Notes under the pieces: generated by a model | Seen by the model: only the letters and a program-made list of their open reading frames with translations | What the model was told of the DNA's origin: nothing | Databases searched by the model: none | Position numbers and translations under genes: made by a program | Shown here: one piece after another, positions 555 to 7,319 of the stretch | Position numbering within the stretch: position 1 is the first letter of the stretch | Layout: every line of letters begins with the position of its first letter | NCBI GenBank assembly: GCA_965261285.1 | Contig: OZ253457.1 | Coordinates: 854,760 to 918,759, forward strand | DNA: 64,000 bases | Origin: Vicinamibacterales bacterium | GTDB lineage: Bacteria > Acidobacteriota > Vicinamibacteria > Vicinamibacterales > UBA8438 | Direction of reading: 5' to 3'

Positions 555-2321
555 TCAGGACGAGGGCGCTTCCTCGATCTCCACGTCGAACGCCGCCGTC
601 TCGACCGCCGTTCCCGGCTTCACCTGGACGACGATGCGGTAGGCGCCCGGTGCCGGGAAGACGAAGGGGAACTCCACCCGGTTGGCGGGGCCGGACGGCG
701 AATGGCCTCCGTGCTCCGCGCTGGGCGCCTCGCCGCCGGCGCCGCCCTCCGCCTCGGTGAAGCGTCGTTGCGCGGCGAGGTTGATGCTGCCGGCGGGATG
801 CAGGTGCACGAACACGGAGCCGTCGTCCCGGAGGACGGCGGCGTGGCTGAGCATGCCCATGTAGGGCTCGAGGGCCGACGGCGTTCCATCCGGCTCGGTC
901 ACCGAGAACCGCAGCGTGGCCTCCTCGTCGACCGCGATCGGGCCGTCGCGTTCCCATCGCATGGTGCGCCCGCTGAGCAGCGGGTAGCTCTCCGATGGCG
1001 ATGCGCCGTAAGGGCGCAGGGTCGCCCAGGAGTCGTCCGGGTCGGGCGCCGGACCCCCCGCCGGCGCGTCGCTGCCATCCGCCGCCTCCCGTGGGCCCCC
1101 GCCGGGGCCGGCCGGCGGTACCCGCGCCGTGTTCACCAAGGTGGGCGCGAACCCGTTCTCGTGCACGATGTCGGCGTAGATGCGGTACTCGCCGGCCGGC
1201 AGCGGCGGCAGCGGCACCGTGAACGACGCGTCGCCGTCACCGTCGCGCACGGGGTGGACGTGGGCGAACGCCGACAGGTCGTCGGCCCGCACCAGGAACA
1301 GGTGCATCAGCTTGCCGTGGTCCGGCAGCAACGCCGCCCCGGGCAGGCCCCGGCTCGCGGACCACCGTGGATCGTCGATCTCGAGGGTCAGGACCTGCCC
1401 CCCGTCGGCTGTCGTCACGGCCGCGGTGGTGCTCCACGGGCGGTAGATGCGGCTCCGGTAGGCGGCGTCGACCGCGTCCCACCAGCGCCAGCCGCCGAGG
1501 AGGACGGCGCCGAGCACGACCGAGAACACGACCATCGCGAGGCGGCCGCGGCGGCGCCGCCACGCGTCGGGCTCGCGGCCCGGCTCGAGCACGCTCTCGC
1601 GGACGGCGGCGCCGAGGATGGTCAGCGCCCCCGCGAAGAGGAACAGGGCGGCGGCGGCGAGCCCCAGACCGACCACGGGATCCATGCCGAGCCGCCGCTC
1701 GGCCAGCGCCAGCACGGGGACGAAGACCGTTCCATTCCCGGCCGCGCCGGCCACGCCGACCTCCACGCTGTACGAGCCGGCCGTCATCAGCCACAGCTCG
1801 CCGCCGTACAGCCCCGCCTCGCCCCGCACGGGGCGGGCGGCGTCGGGGGGCGGCGCGCCCTCCAGCCCCACGTCCGACCGCAACGGGCGCACCGTCACCC
1901 GCTCGACGCCCTCGCCCTCGAGAATCCGCACCGTGACCTGGGCGAGGCCGGGGACCACGCCGGGCGTCCGCACGATGACGCGGACGCCGTACGGCCCCGC
2001 CGCGCCGTCGAAGTAGGCATTGGAGGTGCCCACGTGGGCCGAGGCGACCACCCCGCCGGCGGCGGCGAGCACGGCCGCGAGCAGGACAGCGGCACGCGTG
2101 CGCAGCCGGGTGGCGAGCGCACTCCCCGGGGGGGCGGCGGCAACCTCGGGCGATCGCGGGCCGCGTCGCGGCGGCACGAAGAACCGGGGCGGGACGCTGG
2201 CAACCTCGGGCGATCGCGGGCTGCGTTGCAGCGGCAAGAGGAACCGGGACGGGACGCCGGCAGCCTCGGGCGATCGGGGGCCGCGTCGCGGCGGCACGAA
2301 GAACCGTAGCGAGGCGGCCAC
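555..2321 (-). CDS. exported, membrane-anchored His-rich putative copper protein (PmoB-like architecture; candidate B subunit)
   Basis: GTG starts 1 nt after the upstream TAG. Signal peptide ending ASA then His (HVGTSNAY), a soluble beta-rich domain, two TM helices, then two domains each with H-x(n)-HxHP (HGKLMHLFLVRADDLSAFAHVHP; YMGMLSHAAVLRDDGSVFVHLHP). Confidence 0.75.
   Translation of the reverse strand: MAASLRFFVPPRRGPRSPEAAGVPSRFLLPLQRSPRSPEVASVPPRFFVPPRRGPRSPEVAAAPPGSALATRLRTRAAVLLAAVLAAAGGVVASAHVGTSNAYFDGAAGPYGVRVIVRTPGVVPGLAQVTVRILEGEGVERVTVRPLRSDVGLEGAPPPDAARPVRGEAGLYGGELWLMTAGSYSVEVGVAGAAGNGTVFVPVLALAERRLGMDPVVGLGLAAAALFLFAGALTILGAAVRESVLEPGREPDAWRRRRGRLAMVVFSVVLGAVLLGGWRWWDAVDAAYRSRIYRPWSTTAAVTTADGGQVLTLEIDDPRWSASRGLPGAALLPDHGKLMHLFLVRADDLSAFAHVHPVRDGDGDASFTVPLPPLPAGEYRIYADIVHENGFAPTLVNTARVPPAGPGGGPREAADGSDAPAGGPAPDPDDSWATLRPYGASPSESYPLLSGRTMRWERDGPIAVDEEATLRFSVTEPDGTPSALEPYMGMLSHAAVLRDDGSVFVHLHPAGSINLAAQRRFTEAEGGAGGEAPSAEHGGHSPSGPANRVEFPFVFPAPGAYRIVVQVKPGTAVETAAFDVEIEEAPSS
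2139..2306. repeat. 60-bp tandem repeat, about 2.8 copies, encoding the N-terminal extension of the 555..2321 protein
   Basis: Units start at 2141, 2201 and 2261 (caacctcgggcgatcgcggg...gaaccgg). Confidence 0.9.
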
Positions 2322-2322
2322 G

Positions 2323-3930
2323 CTACCTCCGGACCCGCGCCAGCCAGTCGCCGCACCAGAGGCCGAGGGCGGCCGACACCGCGGCGACCAGCGCGGTGCG
2401 GCCCGCCGTCCCCGCCGTCATCGGCTCGCCCCAGAACTCGTACTGGAAGGCCCCGGGGGCCACGTTGTAGCCGAACTGGTCGGCCGCGAAGACGAAGTTG
2501 CGGGCGCCCTCGGTCAGGAGGAACCCGGCGAACGGCCACTGCACGGCGGCGAGCGCGAGCATCGCGGCGACGCCCGCCCCGGCGGCGCCCGCCATTCGCC
2601 GGATGCCGCCCACGCCGGCCGGCATCCGGCGAATGGCGGCGTCGATGACGAGGGCCGGGGCCACGAGCAGGATGGGGAACGACGGCGGCACCATGCGGTC
2701 GATGTCGCGCAGTATCGGGGCCAGCATCGGCTGGGCGGGAAAGAGCTGCAGCGTCCACATCACGAGCAGGGTGACGCCCATGTAGGCGCCGCCGGCGGCG
2801 GTGGCCCCCCACCGCGCCGCCGCGCCCCGGGCGATGCCGGTCAGCAGGAAGGGGAAGATGGCGGCGCTCACGAGGAAGAACGTCGGTCCGTGCTGCTGGT
2901 TGGGCGTCATGATGTACTCGGCGAACAGGGTCGCCACCATCAGGATCACCAGGCCGCCCGCGTAGGGGAACAGCCCCTGGAGCACCCGGTCGGCGGCCGC
3001 CGCGCGGTTCTGCCGGGCCACCGCCATCAGCATCGCGCCGGCGCCGATGCCGAACATGCCCAGGGCGAGGACGACGTGGGGCGGGCTCAGTATCTCGACG
3101 TCGAGCCCGTAGGCGTTGTGCCACCAGTCGTCGAAGGGGGCCGACACGATCATCGCCAGCGCGCCCCAGATGCAGAGCCAGGCCCCGAGCGGGCCGCGGA
3201 AGCCCCAGAACCGGACGCCGGCGGCGCGTTCCTCCGGGCTGCCCGCGAAGGTGGTGCGCAGCACCAGCCAGCCGCACGAGAGCCCCGCGACGACGCCGCC
3301 CAGGTAGATGGCGAGGTGGGCCGGCGTCCAGAAAGAGTCGCGCCCGATGGACCGGTGCCACGAGATGTCCCAGAGCACCCCGACGATGATGCTCGTCGAC
3401 GCGAACGTGACCGCGAGCAGGGACCAGGGGACGGTCGCCGCCGCCTTCGGCGCCGCCGCGTCGGGTTCGGCCACCGCCGCCGCCGCGTCGGGTTCGGCCA
3501 CCGCCGCCGCCGCGCGGGGTTCGGCCACCGTCGCTGCCGCGTCGGGTTCGGCCACCGCCGCCGCCGCGCGGGGTTCGACCACCGCCGCTGCCGCGTCGGG
3601 TTCGGCCACCGCCGCTGCCGCGTCGGGTTCGGCCACCGCCGCCGCCGCGCGGGGTTCGACCACCGCCGCTGCCGCGTCGGGTTCGGCCACCGTCGCTGCC
3701 GCGTCGGGTTCGGCCACCGTCGCTGCCGCGTCGGGTTCGGCCACCGTCGCTGCCGCGTCGGGTTCGGCCACCGCCGCTGCCGCGTCGGGTTCGGCCACCG
3801 CCGCTGCCGCGTCGGGTTCGGCCACCGCCGCTGCCGCGTCGGGTTCGGCCACCGCCGCTGCCGCGTCGGGTTCGGCCACCGCCGCCGCCGGGGCGCCCGG
3901 AGCCCGCGCGGGAAGCCCGAGGCTGGACAT
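2323..3930 (-). CDS. polytopic membrane protein with PmoC/AmoC-like CuC and CuD motifs fused to a PmoA/AmoA-like domain
   Basis: ATG 3930 is preceded by TACGCT 6 nt upstream (leaderless-type). Motifs WDISWHRSIGRDSFWTPAH and FDDWWHNAYGLDVEILSPPH. C-terminal FP..WGAT, FPxxLVxxAxxxD, WP and ADxxGY resemble PmoA. By-eye comparison only. Confidence 0.7.
   Translation of the reverse strand: MSSLGLPARAPGAPAAAVAEPDAAAAVAEPDAAAAVAEPDAAAAVAEPDAAAAVAEPDAAATVAEPDAAATVAEPDAAATVAEPDAAAAVVEPRAAAAVAEPDAAAAVAEPDAAAAVVEPRAAAAVAEPDAAATVAEPRAAAAVAEPDAAAAVAEPDAAAPKAAATVPWSLLAVTFASTSIIVGVLWDISWHRSIGRDSFWTPAHLAIYLGGVVAGLSCGWLVLRTTFAGSPEERAAGVRFWGFRGPLGAWLCIWGALAMIVSAPFDDWWHNAYGLDVEILSPPHVVLALGMFGIGAGAMLMAVARQNRAAAADRVLQGLFPYAGGLVILMVATLFAEYIMTPNQQHGPTFFLVSAAIFPFLLTGIARGAAARWGATAAGGAYMGVTLLVMWTLQLFPAQPMLAPILRDIDRMVPPSFPILLVAPALVIDAAIRRMPAGVGGIRRMAGAAGAGVAAMLALAAVQWPFAGFLLTEGARNFVFAADQFGYNVAPGAFQYEFWGEPMTAGTAGRTALVAAVSAALGLWCGDWLARVRR
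3458..3889. repeat. 27-bp coding tandem repeat x16, (AAA[A/T]V[A/V]EP[D/R])n
   Basis: Unit cgcgtcgggttcggccaccgccgctgc; 16 copies counted in the translation. Confidence 0.97.
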
Positions 3931-4150: not shown

Positions 4151-5698
<1,548 letters not shown>

Positions 5699-5735: not shown

Positions 5736-6180
5736 TCAGCGCGGGACGTCGCGCACGCGCCGCCGCATCTCTTCCAGCCGGTCCCGGTAGCGCCGGCGGT
5801 AGGCGGCGTGGTCGAGGCCGAACGGGCTGTCGCTCGGCTCGAAGCCGGCGAGAACCTGGTCGGGGTCGGCCTCGGCAAGGGGGCGCAGGGCCGCAACCTG
5901 CTCCTCGAACGGGTCGACCAAGCGGGGTCGATCGGCCAGCAGCCGCCGCAGGACGTGGACGCCGAAGGCGATGTGACGCTCCTCGTCGCGCTGGATCAGG
6001 TGGATGCCGCGCTCGAGACCGGGGAACCGGCCGCTCCGCTCGAACAGGGCGTAGTAGAGGGAATAGCCGGCCTCGGCGGCCACGCCCTCGACGTAGACGT
6101 GGTAGAGCACGACCGCCCGCAGCAGGGCCTCGGGGCTGTCGTCGTCGAGGAGCGCCCGCATGGCCCGCGGCAGGCGGGCG
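5736..6180 (-). pseudogene. 5'-truncated R2-like ligand-binding oxidase (R2lox, ferritin-like Mn/Fe)
   Basis: LPRAMRALLDDDSPEA..LYHVYVEGVAAEAGY...FPGL..GI.LIQRDEERHIAFG matches the C-terminal half of R2lox. Upstream sequence lacks the first Glu and first ExxH. Confidence 0.75.
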
Positions 6181-6385
6181 GACCTCGCGGGCCGCCAAGC
6201 GGAACGCGACCGTGCCTGACTCAGCTCAGCCGCCCTCGTGCAGCTCGTCACGGGCGACGGCGACATAAAACGGTGTTGCCGCAGTATAGGTGCTGAATAT
6301 CAGGACCTGCTGGAGCGGTGACGCCGGCCGACAAGCGCCATTCGGTCCTGCCCCTCCGCTTCCGGAGCGAGCGCCGGCGTTCAAC

Positions 6386-6790
6386 TCACTCCTCCGCACC
6401 AAGGAGACGACGCAGACGCGACGTGGCTTGCGTCCGGTCGAGCCGACTGGCGGCCACGTCGAGGGTCAGAGCCTCCCAGGCGTTCGCGTCGAGGTGCTCG
6501 TTTGGAAGCAGACCGTTCTCGCTGAGAAAGACCAGGCAAGGGGCCAGCGCCACGAGCTTGTTGCCGTCGACGAAGGGGTGGCTCCGGCAGAGGTAGAACA
6601 GGTACGCCCCTGCGATCTCCACCGGGTCGGTCAGCAACGGCTCGCCCAGCATTGTCGCCTGCGGCGCGGCCACCGCAGATTCCAGCCGCGCCTCGTCCCT
6701 CAATCCAGGCGCTCCCCCGTGGGCCGCGAGCACTTCGCGGTGGATCGACTTGACGGCGGCCACGGTCGGGTGAACGAGCGGCGGCGTCAA
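6386..6790 (-). CDS. Doc (death-on-curing)/Fic family toxin with altered motif
   Basis: IHREVLAAHGGAPGLRD..LESAVAAP and HPFVDGNKL (canonical HPFxDGNKR). Confidence 0.9.
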   Translation of the reverse strand: MTPPLVHPTVAAVKSIHREVLAAHGGAPGLRDEARLESAVAAPQATMLGEPLLTDPVEIAGAYLFYLCRSHPFVDGNKLVALAPCLVFLSENGLLPNEHLDANAWEALTLDVAASRLDRTQATSRLRRLLGAEE

Positions 6791-7209
6791 GACAGCCGCC
6801 GGAACAGGTCGTCGTTCGTGCGGATCAACCGCTTCGCGGTCTCAGCAGCTCTATCGGGACCGATGACGGAACGGCGGGCACGCATGAGCAGCGCATCTTC
6901 TACGGTTTCCTTGGTTCCGCTCGTGATGAGCAGATGGGCGGCGTAGGAGATGCTGAGGTCCATCTGCCGTGCCAGGTCGACGAGGTGGTGGTATGCGGCG
7001 GGAGAAATCCGGATCGAACGGGAGTTTCGGTCGGTGGTTGCGGCCACGACCTGAACGGCCCCGTGGGTGATGAGCAGGTTGGCGGCAAAGGCGAGGCTGG
7101 TGCCCATCTGCCGCGCCACCTCGACGAGATGGGAGTGTGCCGCGGACGAGATGCGGATCGATCGGGCGCGTTTGTCGGTCGTTGCCTCCGTGACACGAAT
7201 TGCAGCCAT
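6787..7209 (-). CDS. putative antitoxin with two tandem ribbon-helix-helix-like repeats
   Basis: Overlaps the doc start by 4 nt. Two ~42-aa repeats (SIRISxAAxxHLVxxARQM..S..xAAxLLITxG); C-terminal RLIRTNDDLFRRLS is typical of Doc-neutralising tails. Confidence 0.7.
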   Translation of the reverse strand: MAAIRVTEATTDKRARSIRISSAAHSHLVEVARQMGTSLAFAANLLITHGAVQVVAATTDRNSRSIRISPAAYHHLVDLARQMDLSISYAAHLLITSGTKETVEDALLMRARRSVIGPDRAAETAKRLIRTNDDLFRRLS

Positions 7210-7319
7210 TGTGCATCTGATCGTACCACAAAGAGTCGCAAGCTCTCGCGCGGCGGGCATCCGGTCGTCACGTTGCTGCACGCGAGCCCGAGCAGCAGCA
7301 GGGCCAGGACCTGGCCCTG

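Follow-up and report, generated by a model that had tools for sequence, protein, structure and literature searches.

An unnamed bacterial membrane protein family with two conserved Asp/His triads and remote similarity to the PmoC/AmoC metal core

Whether the paired CuC and CuD sites of PmoC and AmoC, subunits of the copper membrane monooxygenases (CuMMOs), have relatives in other membrane proteins is a question raised by a gene lying in a 64,000-nucleotide stretch of a Vicinamibacterales genome (contig OZ253457.1, positions 854,760 to 918,759; hereafter, the window). This gene, designated here gene A (window positions 2323-3930, minus strand), is translated into a 535-amino acid polytopic membrane protein, with about ten helices in a 376-amino acid core, and belongs to a large unnamed family. 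A preliminary description, drawn up from the sequence alone, had reported that the ligand sets of both sites are retained in it with exact spacing. The analyses presented here revealed that the six residues are conserved across the gene A family, that this family presents remote sequence similarity to PmoC in a region that is internally duplicated, and that gene A is strictly paired with the gene directly downstream of it, designated here gene B (555-2321, minus strand).

The CuC/CuD pocket of PmoC and AmoC is currently favoured as the site at which organisms oxidize methane and ammonia. This pocket is fragile, is difficult to work on and is not known to have relatives outside the CuMMOs. According to reviews, CuC consists of two His and an Asp, and CuD of two His and an Asn, and this pocket is the proposed active site (PMC13058606, PMC11725843).

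Translation of gene A placed all six residues where the preliminary description had them. Site 1 (WDISWHRSIGRDSFWTPAH, residues 187-205; 3316-3372, minus strand) encompasses D188, H192 and H205, and site 2 (FDDWWHNAYGLDVEILSPPH, residues 266-285; 3076-3135, minus strand) encompasses D267, H271 and H285, with spacings (+4/+13 and +4/+14) that are those of CuC and CuD in PmoC. The PmoC sequences used for that comparison are genuine, with both QDGTWHQTIVRDTDFTPSH and the second string, covering CuD, matching PmoC chains in the PDB exactly. The numbering given for them (D156/H160/H173 and N227/H231/H245) is likewise reproduced by the offsets in the chain of M. capsulatus Bath PmoC (1yew_C). The residues said to flank the ligands in both proteins also hold, and the invariant or near-invariant positions shared by the gene A family and PmoC comprise the Trp preceding each first His, the Arg-Asp pair, T-P-x-H and P-x-H.

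The preliminary description had made the invariance of the ligands among homologs a point to be checked, and in an alignment of homologs the full DHHDHH set was present in 99 of 113 diverse representatives. Per-position conservation was scored on 150 diverse representatives, counting only the sequences that cover each position. At site 1, it amounted to 112 of 113 sequences for D188, 105 of 115 for H192 and 116 of 120 for H205, and at site 2 to 140 of 144 for D267, 133 of 144 for H271 and 140 of 148 for H285. The replacement of the CuD Asn by Asp, also put forward in the preliminary description, is correct for D267 itself, but Asn occupies the adjacent position 268 in about half of the family, most other members having Asp there, so that an amide is still found near site 2 in many sequences. 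The gene A family hence departs from PmoC in presenting at this point an Asp followed by Asn or Asp.

A small subclade (P0188, P0198, P0225, P0190, P0223 and P0251) carries D[E/D]H-D[Q/L]Q instead of DHHDHH. Three His residues distributed over both sites have changed jointly in this subclade, as would be anticipated for residues that act in concert, and its members could use another metal or none at all. A composite pattern spanning both triads, D-x3-H-x12-H-x(45-75)-[DN]-x3-H-x13-H, was identified in 178 of 193 full-length members of the gene A family and in 91 of 120 PmoC sequences, and was found in none of 599 decoy open reading frames (ORFs), 120 PmoA sequences and 1200 shuffled sequences.

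The relationship with PmoC extends beyond the ligands. A hidden Markov model (HMM) of the family, encompassing 98 diverse members, was searched against all of the 177,635 distinct sequences in the PDB. AmoC (9cl6_C, E 0.0029) and PmoC (6cxh_C and 7s4l_C, E 0.015) took the first three places, all of them aligning on motif 1, and the matches following them were unrelated (E >= 2). This similarity surfaced only with the diverse 98-sequence alignment, a shallow 20-sequence profile having returned no PDB matches. In searches against Pfam, the AmoC family matched 25 of the 98 gene A relatives below threshold (best E 0.0011), and no other Pfam family matched more than four of them. The gathering threshold of the AmoC model (PF04896, 26.7 bits) was not reached, and the gene A protein itself remained unmatched by it at E values up to 10.

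Profile-profile comparison with an alignment of 28 real PmoC sequences, all of them belonging to PF04896, outlined the extent of the similarity. For the complete family, hhalign reported a match over 87 columns, from D188 to H285, with the six ligands in register (Prob 64.8%, E 6.2e-5), and for the N-terminal half alone the match had a Prob of 78.7% and an E of 1.7e-5. Reversed-sequence controls scored about 12, versus about 40 for the true alignment. Across the loop, 10 of 18 consensus positions are identical, including residues that are not ligands (W, I, R-D and T-P), and the gene A family and PmoC have in common a one-residue asymmetry, the first repeat having a +13 spacing and the second one of +14. 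The region thus defined by hhalign and the predicted helix boundaries is a four-helix core made up of two transmembrane hairpins (helices 1-4, residues 169-309; 3004-3426, minus strand).

The two hairpins do not contribute equally to this similarity. Compared with the PmoC CuC hairpin, hairpin 1 yielded a Prob of 92% and an E of 6.6e-7, and statistical support for homology comes mostly from this comparison. The statement that both ligand sets are kept therefore stands for CuC, but for CuD only in part: its ligands are in register, but hairpin 2 alone is not significant. The equivalence of site 2 with CuD would accordingly be drawn from collinearity, identical spacing, topology and duplication, and not from independent sequence similarity.

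The hairpins of the gene A family are, in turn, recognizable as copies of one another (Prob 86% and E 4.8e-6 over 54 columns, with a score of 7.8 for the reversed control). When the two PmoC hairpins were compared with each other, no similarity was detectable, and the duplication is hence recognizable in the gene A family but not in PmoC. The simplest history would have the D-x3-H...H hairpin duplicated before the gene A family and PmoC split. Under this scenario the gene A family would lie nearer to the symmetric ancestral state than PmoC, and its core may be close to that state, since its hairpin is still visibly duplicated. A duplication that can still be detected would offer insight into how the CuC/CuD site arose.

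An AlphaFold2 model of the gene A protein obtained from the 98-sequence alignment had a pLDDT of 95.8 and a pTM of 0.94; the model derived from a shallow alignment was poor (pLDDT 53). In the former, D188 and H192 end helix 1 and H205 opens helix 2, and the same disposition is repeated by D267 and H271, which end helix 3, and H285, which opens helix 4. Because two membrane crossings part the motif loops, the six residues are predicted to lie on one membrane face, and placement of the triads on opposite faces, which the preliminary description had named as evidence against its claim, is not what the predicted helix topology shows. The positive-inside rule suggests that this face is the periplasmic one, as in PmoC, since Arg is abundant in the intervening loop, whereas the motif loops have an acidic or neutral character. 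Ligation of heme by the four His residues was also considered and was rejected, as each His pair, together with an Asp, is located at helix ends on the two sides of a loop and is not spaced by 13-14 residues within a single mid-membrane helix.

A Foldseek search of this model against the PDB (350,542 chains) placed AmoA (9cl6_B; PF02461) in first position, with a prob of 0.99, an E of 0.07 and TM-scores of 0.35/0.46, making it the best whole-model match of gene A. The AmoC chains 9cl6_C and 9leg_C ranked 15 and 26, and three CuMMO membrane chains among the top 26 matches are far more than expected by chance. Other PmoA/AmoA structures fell outside the top 50. Weak matching was to be expected here, because a two-module protein was compared with single subunits. 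A parallel search against viral predicted structures returned nothing meaningful.

The second of these modules is the six-helix C-terminal half of the protein (residues 312-535; 2326-2997, minus strand), for which Foldseek, hhalign and HMM ranking all point to a weak likeness to PmoA/AmoA. The best local match is a two-helix segment (MVPPSFPILLVAPALVID...VQWPF, also delimited as FPILLVAPALVID...VQWPF; 2509-2694, minus strand), which aligns to FP..L.P.A..LD...NWP of PmoA, FP..L..PA..(I/L)D...(Q/N)WP being the pattern common to both. This match is weak (12.6 bits), and it is always the same one that is recovered. In hhalign, the C-terminal half matched PmoA with an E of 0.02-0.03 and a Prob of about 2%, which is not significant alone. 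When matches were ranked by HMM in a mixed database, 36 of the top 50 matches of the C-terminal half were PmoA, which makes up 6% of that database, and none were PmoC, with scores of at most 13 bits, whereas the top 50 matches of the N-terminal half were exclusively PmoC. The order of the two parts in gene A, C-like and then A-like, is that of pmoCAB. Conversely, the H38/H40/DWDFW region of PmoA is not conserved in the C-terminal half of gene A, and no recurrent match to the Pfam AMO family emerged across the 98 gene A relatives. We regard the chances that gene A is a true fusion of C and A modules as about even.

Gene A is accompanied by gene B, a homolog of which lies directly downstream of the gene A homolog in 80 of 80 related loci. 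Translation of gene B may start at GTG 2321, only 1 nt after gene A, or at GTG 2180, the final in-frame start ahead of its signal peptide. The encoded protein consists of a signal peptide, an N-terminal His, a beta-sandwich domain, two transmembrane helices and two periplasmic domains. Across the family, the signal peptide ends in A or G and is followed by H-V-G-[S/T], with the His invariant in 66 sequences; in gene B this residue is His96 (codon at 2034-2036, minus strand), with which the mature protein is predicted to begin after cleavage between VVASA and HVGT. Each of the two C-terminal domains contains a cluster of invariant His residues (H335, H340 and H354-x-H356 in one, H493 and H506-x-H508 in the other), and near-invariant Met residues are found at M339 and M490.

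Pfam searches with 50 members of the gene B family identified YtkA (PF13115) in nine of them (best E 3.8e-6) and CopC (PF04234) in seven (best E 0.012). These matches are weak, and the gene B protein itself matched neither of the two models. Only marginal matches were obtained with the gene B profile against the PDB, among them 9ll2_A, annotated as a copper resistance protein. These features suggest that gene B is connected with copper, and they would fit delivery of the metal as well as catalysis.

The order of domains in gene B is also that of PmoB (PF04744), in which a signal peptide, a mature N-terminal His and a beta-sandwich precede two transmembrane helices and a periplasmic beta-sandwich with HxH. 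The CuB brace of PmoB, however, is built from the N-terminal His and an HxH in the N-terminal cupredoxin domain, whereas the N-terminal domain of gene B has no conserved HxH and its conserved His residues lie in the two C-terminal domains, at positions 335-356 and 493-508. No other conserved neighbors of the A-B pair were identified in the 80 loci. Two larger neighbor clusters, comprising 16 and 12 loci, correspond to opposite-strand ORFs overlapping the pair itself, and the remaining real genes, ordinary and lineage-specific, are common to at most seven loci.

By Pfam threshold and by architecture, the gene A protein is not a canonical PmoC. It shares with PmoC/AmoC (PF04896; 7S4H and 1YEW chain C, 6CXH_C and 9CL6_C) the D-x3-H-x12-H and [D/N]-x3-H-x13-H triads, located at the ends of consecutive helix pairs and on one face. 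PmoC is nonetheless a six-helix subunit of about 250-290 amino acids, and in gene A the chain continues C-terminally with six additional helices. Unlike that of PmoC, its core begins at helix 1, preceded only by a low-complexity tail. PmoC is encoded together with pmoA and pmoB, whereas gene A is paired with a different partner, and the gene A family is found in phyla that are neither methanotrophic nor nitrifying.

Several of the PmoC look-ups made for comparison returned orphan or phage-borne pmoC copies without pmoA and pmoB, and one returned a full pmoCAB cluster (L089). In one group of loci (L083-L086), the pmoC of L083 (4001-4780) lies amid genes for PhoH, a PD-(D/E)XK nuclease and a metallophosphatase and many small ORFs, with no pmoA or pmoB nearby, and looks phage-borne.

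We consider it probable that gene A encodes an integral membrane metalloprotein whose helices 1-4 are a remote homolog of the PmoC/AmoC metal core (helices 3-6 of those proteins), and that it works with gene B, as its copper partner, in a redox enzyme. In each of the duplicated helix-loop-helix hairpins, an Asp and a His closing the first helix would combine with a His that opens the second, so that two neighbouring 2-His-1-carboxylate sites would lie towards the periplasm as the counterparts of CuC and CuD. The protein would operate as an obligate pair with the membrane-anchored, periplasmic product of gene B, which would most likely bind and deliver copper or form a further copper site. Its most likely role would be that of a copper-dependent oxidase or oxygenase whose substrate is small or membrane-soluble, and its build would be simpler than that of particulate methane monooxygenase (pMMO) or ammonia monooxygenase (AMO). 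A redox enzyme is favoured because the only detectable relatives of gene A are catalytic membrane subunits of CuMMOs. The identity of the metal, the proximity of one site to the other and catalysis are what we infer in this proposal.

Several observations weigh against this interpretation. Every similarity score obtained lies in the twilight zone: the gene A protein matched no Pfam or NCBIfam model even at E 10, the Foldseek search against the PDB returned no match at E <= 0.001 and only low TM-scores, and hairpin 2 scored 11.5, below significance, when compared with the PmoC CuD hairpin on its own. Gene A lacks counterparts of the two N-terminal helices found ahead of the metal core in PmoC/AmoC. 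The genome contains no PF04896 genes, separate pmoA and pmoB genes were not found beside gene A, and gene B is matched by neither PF04744 nor PF02461, its family presenting no similarity to PmoB in hhalign (Prob 0.1%). Furthermore, none of the neighbors conserved in the related loci hints at a substrate or a reductant, and sites of the 2-His-1-carboxylate type also bind zinc or iron.

If the interpretation is correct, the A-B pair could be a new candidate among copper membrane enzymes, present in bacteria that are among the most abundant in soil. A large family that retains both triads in a simpler two-gene setting would, moreover, offer a new and possibly more tractable model of the CuC/CuD site. 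Even if the pair merely handles copper, it would represent a new and very widespread copper system.

A possible but tentative extension of this proposal is that A and B form a widespread but undescribed two-subunit copper membrane oxygenase or oxidase, sister or ancestral to the CuMMOs. In such an enzyme, gene A would combine a PmoC-type core with a fused PmoA-like module, and gene B would take the role of PmoB with a copper site at its N-terminal His, the whole oxidizing a small or lipid-soluble substrate in abundant soil phyla.

The pair might instead serve in the uptake or trafficking of copper or another metal, in the manner of CopC-CopD or YcnI-YcnJ, with B capturing periplasmic copper and handing it to the Asp/His sites of A, which would serve as a relay or form a transport route into or through the membrane. 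Those systems likewise combine a periplasmic N-terminal-His protein with a polytopic membrane protein containing conserved His residues. The weak YtkA-like and CopC matches of the gene B family, the weak match to 9ll2_A, a CopC-like N-terminal His and conserved Met residues beside His are all in keeping with trafficking, as is a module that stands alone without redox partner genes, and paired Asp/His metal sites are known in metal transporters too. Gene A, however, shows no similarity to CopD (PF05425), which is absent both from the Pfam matches listed for it at E values up to 10 and from the top 25 families by member count across its 98 relatives, and no other transporter family was matched in these searches. 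The sole recurrent similarity of gene A is to a catalytic subunit of the CuMMOs, AmoC, and both predicted sites lie on one, periplasmic, face and not along a trans-membrane path. We regard a trafficking role as rather unlikely, but as a serious alternative.

Convergence, in which the hairpins would have arisen independently, as a zinc, iron or structural motif of a membrane protein that is not related to PmoC, such as a zinc-dependent lipid hydrolase, is very improbable: it would agree with scores that all fall below threshold, with significance packed into one stretch of about 20 residues, with low global TM-scores and with the acceptance of zinc in crystals by the CuC site of PmoC, but it leaves unexplained the loop identities at non-ligand positions, the recovery of the similarity in both search directions, the collinear columns with both triads in register, the shared +13/+14 asymmetry and an independent resemblance of the C-terminal half to PmoA/AmoA, with which PmoC is physically associated.

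The gene A family as a whole is large. Searches with the 376-amino acid membrane core returned more than 5977 homologs, nearly all of about 393 amino acids and all unnamed, which group into 2290 clusters at 50% identity (E <= 1e-3), and at least 598 family copies were confirmed in species-representative genomes. Carriers comprise Vicinamibacterales, which harbor the nearest relatives of the gene A protein, and other Acidobacteriota, together with Gemmatimonadota, Thermoanaerobaculia, Eisenbacteria, Methylomirabilota and Verrucomicrobiota. The family has no Pfam or NCBIfam model, and no description of it was found in literature searches. An A-B pair was also detected on a contig labelled as a Klebsiella pneumoniae metagenome-assembled genome (L076, match at 6001-7164), with 49% identity to the gene A protein. 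This contig is probably mis-binned or mislabelled; the pair is otherwise typical of soil phyla.

The start of gene A at the ATG at 3930 is backed by its close relatives, which open with the same MSSLGL[PS]APAPGAP as the product translated from this codon. The N-terminal tail that follows is encoded by a tandem repeat (3451-3890, minus strand) with a 27-bp unit, 16.3 copies and 93% matches between units, which translates as (AAAVAEPDA)n. Related tails rich in Ala, Pro, Glu and Asp are present in close relatives, in which the number of units varies from about 2 to 10. Given this variation in unit number, the tail is a fast-evolving, length-variable repeat, which is at its longest in the present genome.

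A second tandem repeat (2131-2306, minus strand; 60-bp unit, 2.9 copies, 85% matches) occupies the A-B junction, after the gene A stop codon and ahead of the gene B signal peptide, and forms either the 5' end or the leader of the latter. If gene B starts at GTG 2321, this repeat translates as three FFVPPRRGPRSPE-like units. Both genes have thus acquired tandem repeats at their 5' ends in the present lineage.

Upstream of the pair, and divergent from gene A, the window contains a gene encoding a BCCT betaine/carnitine/choline transporter (4151-5698, plus strand; Pfam E 1.6e-171), which is not conserved in related loci. It is followed by a 176-amino acid ORF (5736-6266, minus strand) that matches just the middle (approximately residues 128-263) of R2-like ligand-binding oxidases. 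This ORF lies directly downstream of a gene for a Doc toxin and looks like a truncated remnant. The toxin gene, of the Fic/Doc family (6386-6790, minus strand), overlaps by 4 nt an upstream ORF of 164 amino acids without a family match (6787-7281, minus strand), which presumably encodes its antitoxin.

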